Part shown: piece by piece, positions 2,610 through 60,540 of the stretch | How the letters are laid out: every line of letters starts with the position of its first letter | Numbering within the stretch: the stretch's first letter is position 1 | From: a virus | IMG/VR virus record: IMGVR_UViG_3300008516_000204 | Location: 42,112-106,111 of that record | Length of the DNA stretch: 64,000 nt | Strand: one strand, 5' to 3' | Notes under the pieces: generated by a model | Told to the model about the DNA's origin: nothing | Databases searched by the model: none | What the model saw: the letters and a program-made list of their open reading frames with translations, nothing else | Made by a program: the position numbers and the translations under genes

Positions 2610-3040
2610 TTAATTACTTAATAGGTATAGGACTAAGTTTGGTTCTTAGTGGTTTGATTGGGTGGGAACGAGAATCCCAAAAGAAACCAGCAGGACTGAG
2701 AGATGCTATGCTAATTTGTCTTGGTGCTACTATGTTTACTATTATCTCGCTTATTTTAAGGGATGTTCCTGCTTCTGAAGGAGTTAAGTATGATTTAGGA
2801 AGAATTATTGCTTACACTGTGGCTGGTGTCGGCTTTCTTGGTGGTGGGGTTATGCTAACCAATAAAAAGAAAATTGAGGGAATTACCACAGCAAGTATGC
2901 TTTGGGCGATTGTAGGTATCGGAATTTTATGTGGGTTAGGGGAATATTTATTGGCTAGCATTTGTACGGGAGCAATTTATTTAACCTTAAAATTAAAATA
3001 TGTTCAAATTAAAATAATTAAACAAAAAAATAAGAAATGA
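2606..3040 (+). CDS. mgtC: MgtC/SapB family membrane protein
   Basis: GLIGWERE...KPAGLR, GVGFLGGG, GITTAS.LW motifs; four hydrophobic helices. Confidence 0.9.
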   Translation: MINYLIGIGLSLVLSGLIGWERESQKKPAGLRDAMLICLGATMFTIISLILRDVPASEGVKYDLGRIIAYTVAGVGFLGGGVMLTNKKKIEGITTASMLWAIVGIGILCGLGEYLLASICTGAIYLTLKLKYVQIKIIKQKNKK

Positions 3041-3627
3041 GAAAATTAATATTATTAGCAATATTCATAAGTTTATCTATATATTTGATTAAGACGAATT
3101 TTGTAGAGCTTAAATATCATTTGCCCCTGCCTATAAAAATAGAAACCAGAGCAAATCTGACAGAGACTAAAAAAATGTTGCAGGGCAATCCGATGAAAAT
3201 AGCAAGATGGTTGGATAACAATATAACTGGAAAGTCAGATGGAAGAATTCAGTATGCCCAAACACCAGAAGAGACATTTGAGAGGCGCACTGGTGATTGC
3301 GAAGATTATAGTATTTTGGCAAAATATTTTTTAGATTCTCGATATGATGAAATTTATTTAATAATCTGGCAAGGAAAGTCTAAGTCCTCATCTGAACATT
3401 ATGCAAAGCGTAAACAACAATCAATATGTCACTGTATTTGTGTATTCAAGATAGGCGAAAAAATGTGGGGTATAATGGATAATAGCAATTTTATAATGGC
3501 TTATGGTTCAATAGAAGATATAGTTAAAGCAGATTGTGAATTTAGAGATACTAGGATTGGGCGTGCCTATATTGTGCGATTTACTCACTATATTTATCGA
3601 AGAATTAAGAAACTGGATATAAAATGA
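3037..3627 (+). CDS. membrane-anchored transglutaminase-like cysteine protease, copy 1
   Basis: N-terminal hydrophobic anchor; Q.PEETF...GDCEDY (Cys), ICHCIC (His), IMDN (Asp). Confidence 0.75.
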   Translation: MRKLILLAIFISLSIYLIKTNFVELKYHLPLPIKIETRANLTETKKMLQGNPMKIARWLDNNITGKSDGRIQYAQTPEETFERRTGDCEDYSILAKYFLDSRYDEIYLIIWQGKSKSSSEHYAKRKQQSICHCICVFKIGEKMWGIMDNSNFIMAYGSIEDIVKADCEFRDTRIGRAYIVRFTHYIYRRIKKLDIK

Positions 3628-10514: not shown

Positions 10515-10808
10515 TTGAGTCTGCATAAGACATTGAAGCCGAGAAGAAAAAAGGTTCGTTCCGTTCTAAAGAGACATGAAAGATTGGCAAAGGCTATTAG
10601 GGAACGGAATTGGCTCAAAAAGATGGGTGCATATGGTTTACCCAAGTTTAACCCACTAAAATTTAAAGTGAAAAAGAAAGAGGAAGAAGAGCAAACAACT
10701 ACATTAGGTAAAGTTGATATTGTAGCACAGCATAAATTAGAGAAAGAAAAATTAAGAGAAGAAAAAAAACAGAGAAAGAAAGGGAAAGATACAACTGGAA
10801 TAAGATGA
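10515..10808 (+). CDS. PVC-superphylum small basic (signature) protein homologue
   Basis: MSLHKTLK...RSVLKRHERL......W.....GLPK...KFKVKK; strong AAGGAGG RBS, TTG start. Confidence 0.75.
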   Translation: MSLHKTLKPRRKKVRSVLKRHERLAKAIRERNWLKKMGAYGLPKFNPLKFKVKKKEEEEQTTTLGKVDIVAQHKLEKEKLREEKKQRKKGKDTTGIR

Positions 10809-11407
10809 TTAAATATTGCCTATGTGGTAATAAAATAGATAAAAGGTCTAAAAATTGTAGAATATGTGCTAACTTGGGAATAAATAATCCAAGATATGAA
10901 TTTAGTAAATATAATATAACTAAAGAATTTTTGATAGAAGAATATCTTAATAATAGAAATTCCATTTCTCAAATTGCAAGAAAGAAAAAATGTTCCGAAT
11001 CTTGTATTTATAGTAAATTGAAGAAATTTCAAATTCGGATTAGGACAAGAAGCGAAGCTAATAAAGGAATAAGTAGAGGTTTGGGTAAGAAACGACTTCC
11101 TTTTACAAAGGTGTGGAAAAGAAGAATTAGTGAAAACCATGCAGATTTTTCTGGTAAAAATAATCCCAGATTTGGTAAAAGATTATCCAAATAAACGAGA
11201 AGAAAAATCAGAACTACAAAAGTCAAACATCATGTTTATTTAAAAGAAAATAAAGACGATACGGTACTTATTAAGCAATCAATTCATCGTAAATTACACG
11301 CATATGCTTATAATTATTTAGTAGAACTTGGTTTAATTAAAAAATATATTAAATGGTTTGAAAAAAAATTGAAAATAAAATTAATGAAAACTATGGGGAG
11401 GAAATAA
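10805..11407 (+). pseudogene. free-standing HNH-like homing endonuclease interrupted by an in-frame TAA at 11192-11194
   Basis: The frame continues *TRRKIRTTKVKHHVYLKEN...IHRKLHAYAYNYL...YIKWFEKK, homologous to the C-terminus of 25966..26628. Confidence 0.75.
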
Positions 11408-22379: not shown

Positions 22380-23147
22380 ATGAAAAGGTATAAAAGAAAC
22401 AGAGAAGTTAAACATTATAATGTGAAAAAGAATAATCCTATGTTTGGATATGATAAATATAATATAACCAAAGAATTTTTTGTTCAAGAATATAGCAAAA
22501 ATAAGAAATTGCAAAATGAGATAGCAAGAAAAATAGGATGTAGTTCTACTTATATAAGAGATAAATTGATTAAATATAATATCCCCATTAGAACTAAAAG
22601 TGAGACAATGAAAGGAAAAAATAAAGGTAAAGAGGCTAATAGGTATAACCCAGAAAGACATAAGACACATTATTGTAAAGAATTAAACTGTAATAACGAA
22701 ATAACTTATAGTGGTTGGAAATATTATGGTGGTAGATGCAAATCTTGTGCAAGTAAAAGAGAGACAAAAAAACTCTGGCAAAATGAAAAATTTAGAGAAA
22801 AAGTTACCAGAGCTATTTTTAAGGCTTCTAAAATAAAACCAAATAAACCAGAGAAAAAATTAAATAGATTGCTTCAAAAATTATTACCAGAAAAGTATAG
22901 ATATGTTGGTGCTGGTCAAATAATTTTAGGGGGTTTTAATCCAGATTTCATTAACTGCAATGGACAAAAGAAAATTATAGAACTTTATGGTAATTATTGG
23001 CATAATCTTCCAGCATATAAGAAAAGAGATAAAAGAAGATTGGTTACCTATAAAAAATATGGCTATAAAACTTTAGTCATATGGCAATATGAACTAAAAG
23101 ACATGAATAGATTAATAGAAAAAATACTACAATTTAATGGAGAATAA
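22380..23147 (+). mobile_element. free-standing homing endonuclease (HTH + Cys module + Vsr/DUF559-like nuclease)
   Basis: KPNKPE, NPDFIN, IIELYGNYWH, RDK.R, VIW..E; paralog of 58034..58798. Confidence 0.8.
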
Positions 23148-23581: not shown

Positions 23582-23922
23582 GTTTAAGAAAACCAATACT
23601 TAAAGTAACAAAAGAATGTCCTAAATGTAAAGGATCTGGTCAAAAAACGATTAAAACAAAAAGAACTGATTCATATTTTGAAGCAGATGGAATATTAGGA
23701 AAATATGTGTATATTATTATTGATTGTCCAAGATGTAAAGGAATTGGTAGAGTAGACATTAAACAAACTAATCCAAGATTTAAAAAGTATTATAAAAAGG
23801 ATTTAGAAGAACGAATAGACGATTTGACAACAGAATATAGAAATGCTAAAGAAGAAGCATATAAAATAGGAGAAGAACTTGCTAAACATTGTAAAGAATT
23901 AGATAAGGTGGTGAATAAGTAA
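23578..23922 (+). CDS. DnaJ-type zinc finger protein
   Basis: CPKCKGSG and CPRCKGIG (CxxCxGxG twice). Confidence 0.7.
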   Translation: MSLRKPILKVTKECPKCKGSGQKTIKTKRTDSYFEADGILGKYVYIIIDCPRCKGIGRVDIKQTNPRFKKYYKKDLEERIDDLTTEYRNAKEEAYKIGEELAKHCKELDKVVNK

Positions 23923-24151
23923 TGGCCTACGGGATTTTCACGAAGATAAACATATTTGTTCGCAATATATTGCTCGGCCTGATCGCTTTTCTTCTGGGGA
24001 GATTGGTTTATGTCCTCTTTTTATTAGGGATTCAGTTAGCAGACACCCAAAAAATAATTAATGGAATGTTTGAGATTATGGAGGCTATAGCTAAAAGGCT
24101 TCGTGTGTAGATATAGAAAAAGAGAAAGAATTTTTAATTAGGAAGGAAATA

Positions 24152-24724
24152 TTGGTGAAAAAGTTTACAAAAAAACTTTCGTTGATTACAAGTATCGCAG
24201 TAGGATTATTACTATCTTTATTTGTGCTAATTAATTTATCTGCTTCTGAACCGACTATAGATGAAGTTAAAAAGGAATTGAATGGAGATCCTTATAAAAT
24301 TGCACAATGGATGGGTAGGAATATTAGAACATCAAAGGATAGTATAGGTTATTCTCAACCAGCTAAATACACTTACAAATATAAAAAAGGTGATTGTGAG
24401 GATTTTGCCATTCTTGCTCGTCATTTTATTGGGGATAAATACGAAACCCATTTAGTAGTATGGACTGGAAAATTTAGAGAAGATTCTAAATTCTATAAAA
24501 AATACAAGGCTAAAAAGATATGCCACGCAGTAGTAGCCATTAAGTTACATGTAAACAATTGGGGAATTATAGACCAAGATAAATATATTCCCAATGGCAG
24601 AACTCTAGCAGCTATAATTAAGATTAATTGCGATTTAAGAAGAATTAAAGTGACAGGAGCTTATATAGCAGATTTATATAGATTTAGGAATAAAATAATT
24701 AAAGAGATAGATTTAGATGAATAA
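24152..24724 (+). CDS. membrane-anchored transglutaminase-like cysteine protease, copy 2
   Basis: TM anchor; GDCEDF, ICHAVV, IIDQ; collinear with 3037..3627. Confidence 0.75.
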   Translation: MVKKFTKKLSLITSIAVGLLLSLFVLINLSASEPTIDEVKKELNGDPYKIAQWMGRNIRTSKDSIGYSQPAKYTYKYKKGDCEDFAILARHFIGDKYETHLVVWTGKFREDSKFYKKYKAKKICHAVVAIKLHVNNWGIIDQDKYIPNGRTLAAIIKINCDLRRIKVTGAYIADLYRFRNKIIKEIDLDE

Positions 24725-25158
24725 ATTACATGTATTGGAAACTATATTAGTAATAAGCACTTTTGCCTTATCACTGATAGTGCTATTTAATTACTTAGCT
24801 CCCCCTAAAATACAGACTGATCCAACTTCCGAAGAGATGAGAGATGAAATTATTAGGCAATTGAAAGAGAAAGGAGAAATAGTATGATAAATATATTTAA
24901 GTGTGCTTGTGGAACTCATTTGGTAGAAATAAGTTATGAAAATGTAACTGAATGGACTCATATGAAAACTAAGAAGAAATCTAAAAAGAATATTCCCGAT
25001 TTATGGATTGGAATTTATGATATCTATAATCCTAAGACTGGAAGAAAATATAGAAAGCCCAAATTAATCGCTGACACTATATTTTACGGCAAAACTTTAG
25101 GTTTTGTTATGAAATTCTTAGAAGATATAGTCATGCAATATATAATAAGGAAGAAATA

Positions 25159-25425
25159 ATGAAAACATTAGCGGACATTCTCATATATGTTGCAGGGCTC
25201 CTGTGGGCTATTGAATGTCTGCCTCAGATTTTCAAACTGTTGCGAACCAGAGAAACTCGTGGCTTGAGCTTGGTGTTCTTTATAATATGTTTGACCGCCT
25301 ATATTTTGTTCATTGCAGGAAATATGATGCTTAAAAATTACTCCATAGTGATAGCCAATTCGCTCCCCTTCACATTGATGGGGGTTATAGTATTTTTGAT
25401 AATGAAATATCGGAGAAAGAAATGA
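25159..25425 (+). CDS. PQ-loop / SemiSWEET-like membrane protein
   Basis: LPQIFK...T.GLS, IAN motif; three TM helices, 88 aa. Confidence 0.85.
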   Translation: MKTLADILIYVAGLLWAIECLPQIFKLLRTRETRGLSLVFFIICLTAYILFIAGNMMLKNYSIVIANSLPFTLMGVIVFLIMKYRRKK

Positions 25426-38835: not shown

Positions 38836-41313
38836 ATGAAATTAACTAATAAAGAACGAAAACTGTGGTTCCAGAAAATTTTGAGTCGGCGAGATAACTG
38901 CAAAAATCTGAGGGCTTTTGTCTATAATATCTTTGGGGTAAAATTATATTCTAACCAAGTAAAATCGTTGAGAGATTTTTTAGACCCATCTATTAAGAAA
39001 GTTTTATTTTCATGTGCTCGCCAGGGTGGAAAAACAATGGATATTGCGATTGCTTGTGCAATCATTCCAATATTTTATGATAACATTCATATGTATATTT
39101 TTGCCCCAAAACAGGAGCAGGCACAAATCAGCTTTGAACGGTTTTCCAGCCTTGTCCATACCAATCCCTATAATATCTATGCTGGCTCATTAGCTGTAGA
39201 TAAGTCAGATAGAATTAAATTCTCAAATGGGACAGAGATTAGGGCTGTAACCGCCTCACGAAATGCGGAAATCGAGGGATTAACTTGCCATATCATAGTG
39301 CTTGATGAAGCCCAAGCAATATCACCATTTAAGGTGCGAGAATGTGTTTCTGGTAATATGAGGATTCCTTTACCAACTGGTGATTATGCAACTATGCCTG
39401 AAATTATTAAGAAACAACTTAAAGTTATTACTCCTGATGGTCCAGAAAGGCCAATTAGATATTTCAATGCTGGTATAGATATTCTACATGCTATTTATTT
39501 AGATAATGGGAAAATTTTAAAAGTAAATAAAAATCATAAGCATCTTGTTTACAGCAAAAATTGGAGAGATATAAAATCAGGGGCGGTAAAGAAATTGAGA
39601 ACAGATGAGTTAAAAGTTGGTCATCGTTTAGCTGTAGCAGATAAATTACCTTATTTTGGTAACGAGGGTACCTATGACGATGGTCTTATAGTAGGTAGTT
39701 TTTTAGGCGATGGATCTATTTGTAATGATAAACCAGAATTTTGTGGGTGTCCTAAATTTGTATCTATAATATCATCTGTTATATGGAAAAAGTATAATTT
39801 GAAATTTAAACTTAAGCCAATAAAATCTAAAATTTTGGAAGGCGTATTTACAAATAATAAAGGGGGGAAATGGAATAGTAATCCTTTAACAAAATATTTT
39901 CGTGATATGGGAATGTGGGGAATGAAAGGCGAATTTAAACAGATTCCTAATAAGCAATGGTCTAAGAAATTTCTTCGGGGTCTAATAGTTGGTCTTATTG
40001 AGACTGATGGTTGTATTAGTCATGTTAAAGAAAAAAAGGGAATTATATCATTTGGTAATATATCCAAAGAATTAGTAATCCAATTGCAAGATTATTTAGT
40101 TAAATTTGGAATACACGGCACCATTTTTCACAAAAAGAATAATAAAGGATTTGGTAAAAATCCTAAACCTTTTTATATTCTATCCATTAAGGGTATTGAA
40201 GATATTCGCAGATTCCATAAAAACTTCCAATTGATTACCAAGCAAAAAGTTTTAAACGAAATTGTTGATAATATGAAAAATAAGTCTCCAAGAATTTCCA
40301 GTAGGCACTATCCTAAAGGAATACGATTTATGCAGATTAAAAAAATTGAACAATCGGAGACAGAAAATGTTTATTGTGTTGAGGTCAAAAAGCATTTATG
40401 GATAGTTGATGGAATTATTACAGGAAATAGCATTTACCCAATGGGTGGAGCGGTTCCTGGCGGGGCTAAAATTATTCAGTGCGGTGTCCCAGGTGTTCGG
40501 GGGACACATTTTCACAAGGCGTTCAAAAATAAGTACGACCAAAAGATTAATCCTTTAGGTTATGTACAACATATCTATCCTTGGGATAAATGCCCTATTT
40601 TAGACAGAGACTATGTATTGGCAAGAAAGGCAGAAGACCCAATCAGTTTCGCAACCCAGTATGAACTAAGCTGGGAAAAGTCCAATATCGGAATGTTCTT
40701 ATCCGAGGAAGATTGGGCACGCTGTATCGTTCATTATGAGCTCAGGGATAAGAAAGGCAAGCCCCTGCGTGGCGAGTTTATGGGCATAGACTTTGCAAAA
40801 TTAAGGGATTCCACTGTCATTACAGAACTGAGGCAAGATCCAGACCATCTTGAGCAGTTTTATGTAGTAGGCTGGTGGGAACTCTCTGGGGTGGACTACG
40901 CCTCACAGATAGGTTTTATTAAGAACTTATGGCACAATGAGTTAAAGCAGATATATGCTGATAAATCATCTGTAGGAGAAGGGCCTTTGGATGTATTAAG
41001 GCAGACAGGCATGCCCATTGAGGGCTTTAATTTCGATATTCAGCATAAGGATAAATTATACAAGAACTTGGCAAACTTCATCCAAAAAGGGCAGATACAC
41101 TGGCCAGCCTCGACTCCAAGAGGCTTTGAAAAGGAATATGCACATTTTAAGCAACAGATGATGGAATTGGAAAAGGAGTTCAAGCTATCGGGACTTATCT
41201 CTGTCCACCACAATTTGGATGATTCTCTGGGGAGAGATGATTTTCCCGATTCGATAGCTCTGGCTGTATGGGCAGCTACTCACTTTATTGAGCCTTCGGC
41301 ATATACTGCATGA
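38836..41313 (+). CDS. terL: terminase large subunit, intein-containing
   Basis: ARQGGKT Walker A, IVLDEAQ Walker B, GIDFA..RDSTV and DD.PDS.ALA nuclease motifs. Confidence 0.93.
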   Translation: MKLTNKERKLWFQKILSRRDNCKNLRAFVYNIFGVKLYSNQVKSLRDFLDPSIKKVLFSCARQGGKTMDIAIACAIIPIFYDNIHMYIFAPKQEQAQISFERFSSLVHTNPYNIYAGSLAVDKSDRIKFSNGTEIRAVTASRNAEIEGLTCHIIVLDEAQAISPFKVRECVSGNMRIPLPTGDYATMPEIIKKQLKVITPDGPERPIRYFNAGIDILHAIYLDNGKILKVNKNHKHLVYSKNWRDIKSGAVKKLRTDELKVGHRLAVADKLPYFGNEGTYDDGLIVGSFLGDGSICNDKPEFCGCPKFVSIISSVIWKKYNLKFKLKPIKSKILEGVFTNNKGGKWNSNPLTKYFRDMGMWGMKGEFKQIPNKQWSKKFLRGLIVGLIETDGCISHVKEKKGIISFGNISKELVIQLQDYLVKFGIHGTIFHKKNNKGFGKNPKPFYILSIKGIEDIRRFHKNFQLITKQKVLNEIVDNMKNKSPRISSRHYPKGIRFMQIKKIEQSETENVYCVEVKKHLWIVDGIITGNSIYPMGGAVPGGAKIIQCGVPGVRGTHFHKAFKNKYDQKINPLGYVQHIYPWDKCPILDRDYVLARKAEDPISFATQYELSWEKSNIGMFLSEEDWARCIVHYELRDKKGKPLRGEFMGIDFAKLRDSTVITELRQDPDHLEQFYVVGWWELSGVDYASQIGFIKNLWHNELKQIYADKSSVGEGPLDVLRQTGMPIEGFNFDIQHKDKLYKNLANFIQKGQIHWPASTPRGFEKEYAHFKQQMMELEKEFKLSGLISVHHNLDDSLGRDDFPDSIALAVWAATHFIEPSAYTA
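39343..40428 (+). mobile_element. intein with LAGLIDADG endonuclease (362 aa) in TerL
   Basis: Starts CVSGN just after Walker B; GSFLGDG, GLIETDG; ends VYCVEV...ITGN|S. Confidence 0.92.
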
Positions 41314-43042: not shown

Positions 43043-43645
43043 TGATGATTCCTCAAATTTTAATGGAAACAATTACTGGGACGGCTACCAAAATGGCAGA
43101 TTTAAGCGAAAGTGTGTTTAAAACAGGTAATCCAGAAATCTTTCGTTCCCTAATACTTGGCATTAGGGATAAGCAACCCTATCTGGTCGAGTGGTTTGCA
43201 CTTTATTGCCAGTCGTGCTTGGCTCAGGGGATGGGAAAGGTAGAAATAGCTGCTATGACTATGGCTTTCGTGGTAACAATGAAAGCACTATATGACCAAG
43301 ATGAGATTAGTAACTTGGAGGATTTATTTAAAAAGTGAAGGACATCCCTAAAAAACTTTCTCGGTATCCGTGTCCTATTTGTGGTAAACTGCTAACTGTG
43401 ACTTATTGGGGAATTGTCAACTTAGCGAATCCAAAATCTGACAATCTATGGAGATTCTGTTGCAAGAGCATTTTGATAACCTCGTTCGGCGAATATCATT
43501 GCTATTTTAATTCTCCGATTGTTCAACTGCCTCGAAATTATAGGGACAAGATAGACTGGGGCAAAATAAAAAGCCTCACAGATAGCATTCATCCTGTTAT
43601 TAAAAATGCTATAGATGAGGCAATTAAGCACAATAAATTTGCTAA

Positions 43646-43807
43646 TTAAAGCCTGTCTTTGATATACCTGCCTACAAAATATAATCCCGCCGATAAGCAA
43701 AGTCCAGTTACCACCACTGGATTCTGCTTTACAATAGCAATTATAGAAATCAGACCTATAATACAACTTGTTGCCTGACAAATTAAGCCTATCATTCTAT
43801 TGTCCAT
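43646..43807 (-). CDS. 53-aa two-TM protein, holin candidate (not in the ORF track)
   Basis: AGGAGG RBS; MDNRMIGLICQATSCIIGLISIIAIVKQNPVVVTGLCLSAGLYFVGRYIKDRL; last gene of the - strand block. Confidence 0.55.
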   Translation of the reverse strand: MDNRMIGLICQATSCIIGLISIIAIVKQNPVVVTGLCLSAGLYFVGRYIKDRL

Positions 43808-43820
43808 AACTATCCCTCCT

Positions 43821-44543
43821 TTACAATATTCCTAATTTAACTAAATCTGGCTTCATTAATACTCTTATTTTGACTCTAGGATATTTTATCTTAAATAATT
43901 CAAATTTTTTCTTAGCGTCATCCCGCCAATAACCTTTTATTTCGATATAAGTATTTGTTTTTGGTAAATAAAAATCTGGTATATAACTTGTTTTACCTAA
44001 ATCAAAAGTTTTGGGTTCATAGAACCATCTAATTCTATCACTATCTAAATATTTTGCATAACCTATTTCCCATCCAGAACGCATATTAATTTTTTTATAA
44101 ATTCCCCATTTACCATGAACTACTTTACCATACATTGGGTTGTTTTTACCCTCATAAGAACGCCTAGTTTTTACATTTAATTTAGTGGCACAAAATCGAC
44201 ACCTCCCTTTTCCATACTTCCAAGTTTGGTAGGTTATTTCTTTGTTACATTCTAGTTCTTTGCAATAATACTTTTTTATCCATCTGCCATCAATATAACT
44301 GGCATTATTTTTTCCTTTAGTTGCACAAGATTGACATGTTTTATTTCCATAATAAAAAGTTGTATAAGAAATTTCATTTATTTTACAACTAATACAGTAA
44401 TACTTTCTTCTAGTTATTCCATTTTTCCAATTAGGATTATGCTCTCCCAAATTAGAACAAACTCTACAAAAATTAGCTCTTTTATCTTTTAATTTGCCAC
44501 AGACACATAAATCTTTAGAATGTCTTGGCATTAGAATTTCCAT
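43821..44543 (-). mobile_element. free-standing endonuclease (Cys modules + PD-(D/E)xK domain)
   Basis: MRSGWE..YA.YLD...W.YEPKTF...Y.PDFYL....IEIKG; paralog of 59860..60540. Confidence 0.8.
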
Positions 44544-45169
44544 CTATAATATAATATCATCCTGTTATCGCCCTTATATCCTTTTCCTACACCCAAACCT
44601 ATATTTGAATTATCTGTAATTTTATATGACGAACCTAAATAGATACCTCGATTAGTCAAGAATGTTTCTAATTCCAGTTTCCAGTATCTAAGGAATGAGA
44701 TGCCAACTCCTCCTTCAAAAACACCGCCTTCCAATCCAAAGCCCGCTCCCATAACACCAATCGGCTTCAACTGAAATCCCACTGGGGCAAGTTTCTTCTT
44801 AAGTCCTGGAATATCTGCCACAGATAACTGTTTTAAAATATTCTCATCTTTATCTCTAAAATAAACAAATCCTTTCTTATCAATATAAACATGGTCTCCT
44901 TGTTCATTAACTTCTAAAATAGCCTCTCGCCCATATCCAATATCTATCTTTACTGGTTTGCTCCCTCTTCCCTGTACATAAAAGTAACTCGCTACAAAAC
45001 CAAATATAAAAGCATAAATAATTAATTTTCGCACATTAAAAAGCGAAAAAATATCCTTCAGCCACAGAACTGGGTTAAACAAATTTAACATACTATTAGT
45101 AAATTTCTTGCCAGAAACTTTCTCTCTATATTTCCATTTTTTGCCTACGCTACAATTATTTCTGTTCAT
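44531..45169 (-). CDS. membrane protein: N-terminal TM helix + C-terminal amphipathic beta-strands ending in Phe
   Basis: LIIYAFIFGFVASYFYV TM segment; C-terminus ...NIGLGVGKG...RMILYYRWKF. Confidence 0.6.
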   Translation of the reverse strand: MNRNNCSVGKKWKYREKVSGKKFTNSMLNLFNPVLWLKDIFSLFNVRKLIIYAFIFGFVASYFYVQGRGSKPVKIDIGYGREAILEVNEQGDHVYIDKKGFVYFRDKDENILKQLSVADIPGLKKKLAPVGFQLKPIGVMGAGFGLEGGVFEGGVGISFLRYWKLELETFLTNRGIYLGSSYKITDNSNIGLGVGKGYKGDNRMILYYRWKF

Positions 45170-45234
45170 ACTATCATCTCCTTGTTTAGCTCCTCTTTCT
45201 ATAGATTAAAAATATCACAATAAGGGAAATAAAT

Positions 45235-46353
45235 TTATATTACTTTAATACTTCCGAAGCTAGCTTCATTGGTTTCCCAATTTATATCAAAAGCACCTGT
45301 CAAATTAAATGAAATCTCATTTATAATACATCCTTTATTATCAACTACTCCATTGTAATAATTTTCAAATTCAGATCCGTATTTTTCAACCATATTATTA
45401 TAAATATCTAAAACTTGTATAGGTTCTGTTAAAGCTATAGTATAGTGGTAGTATTTTAAATCATAATGAACAGTTCTCAGAACTACATTTATAATAAATT
45501 TATTAAAAGTTGGGGGTGGTATATAATATTCTAAAGGTGGGATTTTTATATTTAATGAATCTATATAAAGCCTCCCATTTTTAGGTAATCTATAATTCTT
45601 AGTTTGGTATCCACCCAAAGACGAATATCTATAAAAAGACAATATGGTAGCAAGGGCTATATTAGGTATTCGTAATGTTTTCATAATTATTTTACCACTT
45701 TGGATTTCAATAGACTGAGATGGACTTAGATTGGATACAGCCCATTTTTTAAAATATCTACCATAAAATAAAATATTAGCACTATCTGTATAAATTTCTA
45801 AAGGGGAATGTTTCCAATCTTCTAAAAAATATGGTTCAGGAATAGGATGTCGTAAATCTTCTATGTGAATTGCTTTAATTTTAATTAAATTTTGCTTATC
45901 CTCTGTCTTTTTAGGCATTTTTGGTCTATTAAGACAATCTATATCTACCCATTCTCTTTTATCTTCTACTTTGTTTCCATATTTATAAGTTCCTATATAA
46001 TTTGCTTTACTATCATAATTAAAATATTGGTATAATAAAGGTGTGGCTGATACATTATGCGGATCTGATAAAAGTTTTTCTGTAGATGTTCTCAATTCAT
46101 TTATATGTTTTTTATTTACAGGAGTTTTTGGGGGTATCGTGCTAAAATCTGTTTTTTCCATTTCTGGAGCAAATTTTGTAGCTTCAATTTCTTGCTGCTT
46201 TCTTGTATCCTGTAATTCTTTGATATGCTTAACTTTTATTGGTACCACCCCTTTGTAATCATCGCCACTCAACCCTCTGGGTGTCAAAATAGGATCATCT
46301 GTCCATTTGCCTATTTCGGTATGGCAAGTTGGGCATAGTTTTTTATCGGGCAT
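45235..46353 (-). CDS. putative virion/tail-associated protein
   Basis: Downstream of the large tail protein; three HI.(E/D)L(R/Q) motifs. Confidence 0.5.
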   Translation of the reverse strand: MPDKKLCPTCHTEIGKWTDDPILTPRGLSGDDYKGVVPIKVKHIKELQDTRKQQEIEATKFAPEMEKTDFSTIPPKTPVNKKHINELRTSTEKLLSDPHNVSATPLLYQYFNYDSKANYIGTYKYGNKVEDKREWVDIDCLNRPKMPKKTEDKQNLIKIKAIHIEDLRHPIPEPYFLEDWKHSPLEIYTDSANILFYGRYFKKWAVSNLSPSQSIEIQSGKIIMKTLRIPNIALATILSFYRYSSLGGYQTKNYRLPKNGRLYIDSLNIKIPPLEYYIPPPTFNKFIINVVLRTVHYDLKYYHYTIALTEPIQVLDIYNNMVEKYGSEFENYYNGVVDNKGCIINEISFNLTGAFDINWETNEASFGSIKVI

Positions 46354-58033: not shown

Positions 58034-58798
58034 TTACTTTGCTCCTATATTGTTAAATACTAAAATTCTATTTTTTACTCTGCCTAAATCTTTCAGTTCG
58101 TGCTCCCAAATAATAAGAGTTTTGTAACCATATTTCTTATAAGTTATTAATCTTTGTTTATCTCGTTTCTTATAATCTGCTAAATTGTGCCAATAATCTC
58201 CATAGAGTTCTATTATCTTTTTCTGACCATTCACATTTATAAAATCTGGATTATATCTATTAATAATAAATTCCCAATTACCAACATACTTATATTCCTT
58301 GGGTAATAGTTTCTTGAGAAGTTTATTCAACATTTTTTCTGGTTTATTGGGTTTAGTATTTAATGCTTTTAATCTTGCTTTCATTACTTTTGTTACATAT
58401 TTTTTATCTTGCCAATGTTTCGTTGTTGCTATTCTACTTGCGCAAGATAAACACCTTCTGCTACCTCCATAAAACCAATTAGCATAACTTATTTCATTAT
58501 TACAACCTTTTTCTATACAAAAGTGTTTCTTATGCCTTTCTGGATTACGAATCTTTCCTAAATTTTTTTCTCTCAATTTTTCTTTAGTTTCTTCAGTACG
58601 ATGCCTACCAATTAATGCCTCGCTAACTGTTCTGATAGGAATATTATATTTAATCAAATTTCGTCTTACTGTCTCTGATTTACACCCTATCATATTAGCA
58701 ACTTGTTGCATAGATTTTTCATTTTTACTATACTCTTCTACCAAATATTCTTTAGTTATATAGTATTTTATTTTTGTCATCTTTATTCCAATACTCAA
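58034..58798 (-). mobile_element. free-standing homing endonuclease (HTH + Cys module + Vsr/DUF559-like nuclease)
   Basis: KPNKPE, NPDFIN.NGQKKIIELYGDYWH; paralog of 22380..23147. Confidence 0.8.
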
Positions 58799-59859: not shown

Positions 59860-60540
59860 TCATAGCACCTTCAGATTTTTCAAATCTTTTTGCATTAATA
59901 TTTGTAATTTAATATCTGGATACTGTTTTAAGAATTTCTTGATTTTAAAATAAGCTATTTCACTCATATAACCTTTTATTTCTACATAAACACTATCAGA
60001 TAATTTAAAATCAGGTGTGTAAGTTGTACTGCCTAAATCGAAGGTTTTAGGTTCATATTGCCATTTAATTCCTAATTTATCCAAATATTTCGCAAATTTT
60101 ATTTCCCAAGAACTTCTCATATTTATTCCTTTATATTTTCCCCATTTTGGTAGTTTTGTTTGTCTTCCATAAAAAGGAGAATTTTTTCCTGCCATTCTCT
60201 TACTATGTTTTGGTCTTTTCTTTCCTGTCCAATATCCTACTTTTCCAAACATGGGATTATTTGAACCTTGATGATTATGTTTACCTATATTACCTAATCT
60301 AATTTTATTTTTATGCTCTTCTGTTTTGAAAATTCCTTTAAGTGCTTCGCTTAAAGTTCTAATAGGAATATTGCATTCTATTAATCTTCGTCTTATAGTT
60401 AATCGTTCACAATTTATTATATTAGCCACTTTTTGCATAGATTTTTTATTTTTGATATACTCCTTTATTAAAAATCCTTTAGTTATATCATGCCTATAAT
60501 TTGAATTATTTTTATCTAACATCTTAAAAATTACTCCCAA
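59860..60540 (-). mobile_element. free-standing endonuclease (HTH + NUMOD-like + PD-(D/E)xK domain)
   Basis: ITK.FL..EY HTH module; MRSSWE...W.YEPKTFDLG...YTPDF...VEIKG. Confidence 0.8.

Follow-up and report, generated by a model that had tools for sequence, protein, structure and literature searches.

Phage T1 gp11, a unimolecular spanin, is a single chain proposed to hold both membranes, with an N-terminal lipid in the outer membrane, a beta-rich periplasmic part of fewer than 100 residues, a C-terminal transmembrane (TM) helix in the inner membrane and a late or lysis gene context (Kongari et al. 2018, PMC6139136). The same study found no spanin in 91 of 677 phages, about 13% of phages of Gram-negative hosts, and raised in one sentence the idea that an outer-membrane protein (OMP) could serve as the o-spanin. 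How spanin-less phages open the outer membrane is largely unexplained. Here we describe a pair of genes, encoding membrane proteins of 212 and 53 residues, that close a late operon in a 64,000-nucleotide stretch (the window) of the virus record IMGVR_UViG_3300008516_000204. The pair is real and conserved, has no annotation and encodes phage envelope proteins of unusual predicted architecture, for which a lysis or spanin role is plausible.

The window covers bases 42112-106111 of a complete 106,111-bp record (G000) with direct terminal repeats. The sequencing runs carrying this DNA are marine sediment metagenomes, and none listed among the runs searched was an RNA run with this sequence. An earlier note, made from the letters of the window, had placed a 212-residue protein, an inserted endonuclease and a 53-residue two-TM protein at the end of the virion operon and proposed that the two membrane proteins form a candidate lysis module. 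The three open reading frames (ORFs) are present, all on the minus strand, at 44531-45169, 43821-44543 (240 residues) and 43646-43807, and they do end the late virion operon.

Predicted architecture of the 212-residue protein

The 212-residue protein (44531-45169, minus strand) is here the founding member of an unannotated phage membrane-protein family. An AF2 model built with 40 homologues (mean pLDDT 84) divides the chain into four parts. Residues 1-45 (45035-45169) form a basic, presumably cytoplasmic region with two short helices (residues 20-28 and 33-43), in which E16, K22, W36 and K38 are conserved across alignments A1 and A6. A TM anchor, seen both as an AF2 helix and in hydropathy, follows at residues 46-69 (44963-45034) and is preceded by the conserved R47 and K48. 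Residues 70-129 (44783-44962) make up a predicted periplasmic spacer, a four-strand beta meander with a short helix and conserved D119, L123, L127 and P129, which is modelled in this way in the full protein and as a domain alone. The last 83 residues, 130-212 (44534-44782), are predicted to form a six-stranded barrel rich in glycine and aromatic residues and ending in YYRWKF, to which the AF2 model, fold matches, the conservation of its faces and C-terminal statistics all point.

The first 48 residues contain eleven lysines and arginines against two acidic residues (net charge about +9), while the 50 residues after the helix are approximately neutral. By the positive-inside rule, this points to an orientation with the N-terminus inside and the C-terminus outside. 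The layout is common to all family members; many carry an extra TM helix at the extreme N-terminus, upstream of the first, and this preserves the orientation. The basic N-terminus and TM helix described in the earlier note thus stand, and the highly charged, conserved N-terminal 48 residues and the two-TM homologues support type II anchoring in the inner membrane. The same two observations are evidence against a plain cleaved signal peptide, which the note had named as an outcome that would undo its proposal.

Six long strands (residues 130-211, pLDDT 92-96) make up the C-terminal domain in the AF2 model, in keeping with the roughly six strands that had been read from the sequence, and they support an OMP-like beta domain. 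Comparison of residues 129-212 with known folds ranked first 9XZT, a closed barrel of six strands made by design (Z 8.4, rmsd 2.3 Å over 74 residues), and second the designed TM barrel 6X9Z (Z 7.6), with all six strands superposed in both cases, followed by OmpW (Z 6.7), OmpA, OprF, NspA and porins (Z 5-6) and Cap15 (Z 5.1). After the two designed barrels, the matches are mostly OMP barrels; a Foldseek search gave no match at E ≤ 0.001. Since all six strands superpose on 9XZT at 2.3 Å, the modelled domain is closed as a monomeric six-strand barrel, in place of the oligomeric barrel that had been envisaged. 9XZT, or BBn6, is an n=6, S=8 meander barrel, a fold that its authors describe as rarely or never seen in nature (PMC12478100). 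If the model is true, the domain would be a natural six-stranded meander barrel, of a fold that designers have called almost absent from nature. The mini-domain that precedes it, with four short strands (residues 83-114) and a short helix (121-126), looks like one propeller-blade-like meander in the model; folded alone it reached pLDDT 79 and a best fold Z of 3.9, with no informative match.

The two faces of the barrel strands differ in conservation among 150 family sequences, and it is this conservation, and not model coordinates, that underlies our assignment of inward and outward faces. One face is hydrophobic and variable (conservation about 0.3-0.55), aliphatic in its middle, as at V155, I157, L167, L178, I190, L192, V194 and L206, and aromatic near both ends (one end has F132, W163, Y182, Y208, W210 and F212, the other F144 and F151). 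The opposite face holds most of the conserved residues, among them G154 (1.0), G156 (0.98), G195 (0.98), G141 (0.94) and G179 (0.87), with further conservation at Y177 (0.82), E152 (0.80), T172 (0.79) and R203 (0.75). In 13 of 15 OMP families a Tyr-Gly "mortise-tenon" motif that faces the lumen is conserved (PMC5542473). A variable hydrophobic face combined with a conserved face of glycine, tyrosine and charged residues would be the pattern of an OMP, the reverse of a soluble barrel with a conserved core.

The end of the chain is likewise conserved. An exact terminal Phe or Trp is found in 142 of 155 family members (92%), with a hydrophobic or aromatic residue at -3 in 93% and a polar one at -2. 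The family therefore carries the features of a C-terminal beta-signal (terminal Phe or Trp, hydrophobic -3 and -5, polar -2); the terminal Y-x-W-x-F to which the note had drawn attention is present, and its aromatic-x-Phe end is kept family-wide. As a predicted architecture, the combination of inner-membrane anchor, periplasmic mini-domain, OMP-like six-strand barrel and beta-signal is well supported.

Homologues of the 212-residue protein fall into 62 clusters at 90% identity and 115 representatives at 50% identity, 100 of the 115 with E-values below 1e-10, and all in both sets come from metagenomes or viromes. The family is large, is confined to uncultured phages as far as found, and represents a clade-specific bitopic envelope protein. 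No match to it was found in Pfam, PHROG, NCBIfam or PADLOC. With hmmscan at E ≤ 1 the sole return was DUF5420 (E 0.12), with no Ail_Lom (PF06316), OMP_b-brl (PF13505) or OmpA_membrane (PF01389). A profile search of PDB sequences returned nothing, tblastn against 50,697 GenBank phage records found no relative, no member turned up when GTDB genomes were scanned with a pattern, and a further search for homologues, run with the diverse profile A6, added no relatives, fused forms or names. The nearest clusters in the protein Atlas are viral hypothetical proteins only, and the best match in BFVD is an uncharacterised phage protein (E 1.8e-4).

Within the family, identity is distributed unevenly along the chain. 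The contigs L001 and L019 share 74% identity over the N-terminal and TM part versus 40% over the periplasmic part, while L001 and the window share 63% versus 86%. These discordant values indicate that the two modules have different histories and recombined around the point where the TM helix ends.

The 53-residue gene and its operon

The 53-residue protein (43646-43807, minus strand) has two weakly hydrophobic TM segments (about residues 6-26 and 30-47), followed by a C-terminus that is short and charged. Its gene is preceded by a strong Shine-Dalgarno sequence, AAGGAGGG (43814-43821, minus strand), which is conserved in L001 and whose bases 43820-43821 double as the final two bases of the stop codon of the endonuclease gene (43821-43823). 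Compared with L001, its frame shows 17 synonymous and 17 non-synonymous codon differences, versus 3 and 29 or 2 and 32 in the other frames. Because of this pattern and the conserved ribosome-binding site, the frame reads as a real gene under purifying selection. A 111-residue ORF (43446-43781, minus strand) overlaps both this gene and a convergent 104-residue gene; nearly all of its differences from L001 are non-synonymous, and it is probably spurious and non-coding.

Gene-context comparisons, which drew on IMG/VR and JGI loci, place the 53-residue gene directly downstream of a family member in all six distinct contigs that hold it (the window, L001, L019/L103, L100, L101 and L102), which makes it a conserved partner of the family within this sub-clade. 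The gap between the two genes is 0-50 nt or is occupied by an inserted endonuclease, and the genes upstream of the pair differ between contigs, being tail-like proteins or endonucleases. No Pfam, PHROG, NCBIfam or PADLOC match was found for the 53-residue protein, and its protein Atlas scores are all ≤0.82. By sequence and hydropathy its small size, two TM domains and charged C-terminus agree with class II holins and pinholins. Two further markers of that class, a conserved dual start and a holin-family match, are both lacking: the dual start at Met1 and Met5 that the note had suggested is not kept, Met5 being Thr or Gln in relatives. Pfam and PHROG scans recognised no endolysin near the gene.

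The gene between the pair encodes a free-standing endonuclease of 240 residues (43821-44543, minus strand) with Zn ribbons, a NUMOD3-like motif and an endonuclease-I-like PD-(D/E)XK core (Pfam PF05367, Phage_endo_I, E=3e-7; PHROG 9019/945). Its second ATG, at 44531, overlaps the stop codon of the 212-residue gene (TAATG). This gene is an insertion, as had been proposed, and is mobile: L001, L019 and L100-L102 lack it at the position between the pair. In L001 (2969-3658 and 4302-4348) the endonuclease lies upstream of the family gene instead, and the short spacer before the 53-residue gene retains the last codons of the endonuclease gene (…AAATTAGGAATACTGTAA), a 3' remnant that looks like the footprint of an insertion or a loss. 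Relatives in BLAST-cluster c0 lie at 59860-60540, 58034-58798, 22380-23147 and 10805-11194.

The operon includes a minus-strand head block (genome positions 16015 to 286) that runs across the genome ends into a tail block, which encodes a head-tail adaptor, a tail completion protein, a 781-residue tape measure, a 1441-residue tail protein and proteins of 100 and 372 residues. The three ORFs discussed here follow the 372-residue protein and converge with a plus-strand block ending at 43649. A Shine-Dalgarno sequence, AAGGAG (45178-45183, minus strand), can be read off the sequence 8 nt upstream of the 212-residue start. The 372-residue protein (45235-46353, minus strand) has an N-terminal CxxC… and three copies of an H-I-x-E/D-L-R/Q motif, with no usable family match in Pfam, PHROG, NCBIfam or PADLOC. 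Its homologues in L001 and L019 (420-436 residues) similarly follow the large tail protein, so that a component of the tail fibre is its probable identity. Elsewhere in the window, the large terminase (38836-41313, plus strand; 825 residues) is matched by terminase profiles over residues 46-174 and 593-816 only, and the middle of about 420 residues looks like an intein with a homing endonuclease.

Weighing a spanin-like role

Our favoured, though tentative, reading is that the 212-residue protein is a one-chain, barrel-anchored, spanin-like envelope protein that works with the 53-residue membrane protein. We arrive at this reading because the predicted architecture would naturally join two membranes, the cassette closes the late operon, the genome lacks a lipoprotein spanin, and Kongari et al. 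allow for an OMP in the o-spanin role. Outer-membrane insertion, the bridging of two membranes and the lysis role are parts that we infer. In such a mechanism, the conserved basic N-terminus would be kept in the cytoplasm while one helix anchors the protein in the inner membrane, and the next 60 or so residues, in the periplasm, would form the small beta domain that leads into the 83-residue, six-stranded up-down barrel. The barrel, with its hydrophobic, variable outer face, its conserved inner face rich in Gly, Tyr, Glu and Arg and its aromatic-x-Phe beta-signal at the chain end, would be inserted, probably with the help of BAM, into the outer membrane of the host, the N-terminus remaining in the inner membrane. 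A single chain would thereby tie both membranes without a lipid anchor, and after degradation of the wall it could help to disrupt or fuse the outer membrane in the fashion of a spanin. The 53-residue two-TM protein would be the inner-membrane partner, holin-like or regulatory.

An all-frame scan of the whole genome found no lipobox ORF on the coding strands, hence no canonical o-spanin or u-spanin, and the 212-residue protein itself has no lipobox, as the note had said. A hydrolase scan (Pfam E ≤ 1e-4) of ORFs of at least 75 residues, covering most of the 106-kb genome with a few large ORFs left out, recognised no canonical peptidoglycan hydrolase domain or endolysin. A possible alternative envelope or lysis cluster lies at 23922-25425 on the plus strand and encodes a 62-residue TM protein, a 190-residue exported BTLCP/transglutaminase-like Cys protease, a 56-residue TM protein and an 88-residue 3-TM protein that is probably a PQ-loop match. 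A paralogous anchored protease is found at 3037-3627, adjoining MgtC.

Several observations weigh against a spanin-like role. The absent spanin is weak evidence for it, because no canonical endolysin is recognisable in the genome either, and no endolysin adjoins the pair. Distant relatives (L004-L015), usually of the two-TM form, have no 53-residue partner and sit with genes for replication, recombination and auxiliary functions. Their neighbours include genes for a RuvB-like ATPase, tyrosine and UvsX-like recombinases, a metallophosphatase, DUF6899, ClpP, trypsin-like and M14 peptidases, a 5'-3' exonuclease and ribonucleotide reductase, together with ParB-like genes. The M14 peptidase near some homologues was considered as an endolysin and rejected, as it adjoins an amidoligase gene; it may be part of a peptide-modification system. 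The claim that the locus is a lysis module thus gains no backing from the synteny of homologues, which shows no link to recognisable lysis genes and goes part of the way toward what the earlier note had set out as its refutation. The predicted architecture poses difficulties of its own. The periplasmic spacer, at about 50-65 residues and predicted to be folded, would be short for a normal periplasm; the top fold match, 9XZT, is a soluble designed barrel, and the inward face is assigned by conservation logic; and six-stranded barrels are not known among natural outer-membrane proteins.

The host also bears on this question, since a host outer membrane is assumed and has no support independent of the 212-residue protein. 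The PVC host proposed in the note is not supported: it rests on a 97-residue protein (10515-10808, plus strand) that matches TIGR04137, the small basic protein of Chlamydiae and Verrucomicrobia, at 32.5 bits, below the cut-off of 50, and searches with RecA and the DNA polymerase point to no host. All 26 of the same-length relatives of the 97-residue protein are on metagenomic phage-like contigs, of which several are long and one has been assigned to a Hodarchaeota genome, probably by mis-binning. The phage RecA (20709-21728, plus strand) has 37-42% identity to any cellular RecA across 185,579 species genomes, with matches spread over many phyla, and is a deep-branching viral RecA. The DNA polymerase has about 30% identity to those of SPO1-like Bacillus phages, and the tape-measure matches come from mixed hosts. 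Genes of the phage for sigma-70-type factors, peptide deformylase, GGDEF, RecA and ClpP indicate a bacterial host; on their account we rejected the archaeal host that might be read from contigs binned as Pacearchaeota or Hodarchaeota.

A rather unlikely alternative, but one that draws on several of these difficulties, is that the protein is anchored in the inner membrane with a periplasmic barrel that is not embedded in any membrane. The barrel would be soluble, or its hydrophobic face would be buried in an oligomer or against an envelope protein of the host. The role would lie outside lysis: the protein might, for example, exclude superinfecting phages, mask a receptor or remodel the envelope, perhaps with the 53-residue protein as its partner. 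The soluble six-strand barrel at the top of the fold matches agrees with this, and the alternating pattern alone suits a lipid face and a hydrophobic core equally well. A place after tail-fibre genes is typical of exclusion morons, of which cor and llp are examples. The position of the family gene varies in relatives, extending to the replication and auxiliary block, and the short folded spacer speaks against reaching the outer membrane. However, a barrel of this kind would expose more than 12 conserved glycines together with E152, R203 and Y177 on its surface and would have the less conserved face as its "core", and the strict C-terminal Phe would be left unexplained. An exclusion role specifically is at odds with a gene that looks widely kept in its clade (115 clusters), since exclusion genes are usually sporadic.

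It is unlikely that the two proteins act as a pair at the inner membrane, with the 212-residue protein serving as a class III holin similar to T of T4, as an antiholin or as a pore former of amphipathic beta hairpins, and the 53-residue protein as its partner or regulator. The class III holin T of T4 has its N-terminus inside, a single TM helix and a large periplasmic domain in a chain of about 210-220 residues, and its gene follows the tail-fibre genes, so the topology and size of the 212-residue protein match its layout. Two neighbouring membrane genes closing a late operon would suit a holin pair, as would the conserved cytoplasmic juxtamembrane region, which suggests regulation from inside the cell, and the independent recombination of the N-terminal and periplasmic modules. 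Pfam and PHROG, however, gave no match to Phage_holin_T or any other holin family, and the T structure is not among the 50 fold matches listed. The periplasmic domain of holin T is described as an alpha/beta fold, which differs from the predicted barrel; a Gly-rich barrel with a conserved terminal Phe is seldom seen in holins, and there is no endolysin nearby.

That the TM helix is instead a cleaved signal peptide and the product a free OMP, such as a Lom/Ail/OmpX-type moron, is very improbable: OMP-like strands, the beta-signal and weak BFVD matches to phage proteins named "outer membrane protein beta-barrel domain" speak for it, but the 45 residues ahead of the helix form a basic segment with conserved positions (E16, K22, W36, K38, R47), the hydrophobic stretch of about 20 residues has no conserved AxA site after it, many homologues have two TM helices, there are six strands and not eight, and Ail_Lom, OMP_b-brl and OmpA_membrane are missing even at E ≤ 1. 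The Lom/Ail-type moron was rejected, as was an LptC-like jellyroll. A Cap15-like effector, which would have a nucleotide-binding beta-barrel in the cytoplasm behind N-terminal TM helices and a setting in a defence system, was set aside in view of a fold Z of only 5.1, no PADLOC match, a phage late-operon context and the charge distribution, which would place the barrel in the periplasm.

The spanin-like reading, with its outer-membrane barrel, can be taken further, although we consider the extended form improbable: one chain would be both an inner-membrane protein and a BAM-assembled six-stranded barrel, below the size of any known natural OMP barrel, and would serve a clade of uncultured sediment phages for breaching the outer membrane, either as a lipid-free, inverted class of unimolecular spanin or as a tethered beta-signal that jams BAM. 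Because the comparisons single out no host and the link to lysis is circumstantial, the practical value of the finding is limited; the idea can be tested in the E. coli lambda system.

Comparison with known systems

A precedent for a chain of this form is found in type IV secretion, where VirB10/TraF combines an N-terminal inner-membrane TM helix with a C-terminal beta-barrel domain that reaches the outer membrane in one polypeptide. VirB10 is much larger, crosses the outer membrane by helices as a 14-mer, and is unrelated to the 212-residue protein in sequence and function.

Lambda Rz resembles the 212-residue protein as a type II inner-membrane protein with an N-terminal TM helix and a periplasmic C-terminal part. 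It differs in being an alpha-helical coiled coil that needs the lipoprotein Rz1, whereas the 212-residue protein is predicted to be all-beta past the TM helix apart from one 6-residue helix, with no periplasmic coiled coil, and the all-frame lipobox scan found no gene for an o-spanin lipoprotein in the genome.

The barrel itself is most similar to the small OMPs and to a designed fold. With OmpX/Ail/Lom, the N-terminal domain of OmpA, NspA, OmpW and 6X9Z it shares an up-down meander with short turns, aromatic girdles, a lumen face of glycine, tyrosine and charged residues and an aromatic-x-Phe end (Z 5-7.6). Those barrels have eight strands and a cleaved signal peptide, while the 212-residue protein has six predicted strands and an inner-membrane anchor that looks uncleaved, and no profile matches it. 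BBn6 is an n=6 meander barrel and the best structural match, but it is a designed soluble protein, built around a hydrophobic core, and has no homology to the 212-residue protein.

In proposed function T1 gp11 is among the closest systems, and with it the 212-residue protein shares a single chain that would hold both membranes, a small beta-rich periplasmic part, a late context and a phage without a separate o-spanin. Sequence and family similarity, a lipobox Cys and an adjacent endolysin are all lacking. The gene has a 2-TM holin-like neighbour, with no endolysin recognisable in the scanned ORFs and with other contexts in distant relatives, and the likeness in function is a proposal. The order of the anchors is inverted: the TM helix of the 212-residue protein is N-terminal (residues 46-69) and its C-terminus is a beta strand, such that the putative outer anchor would be the barrel in place of the N-terminal lipid of gp11. 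Such a barrel-anchored single-chain bridge, of which the papers searched described no example, would, if true, be a distinct solution to the opening of the outer membrane by phages without a spanin.

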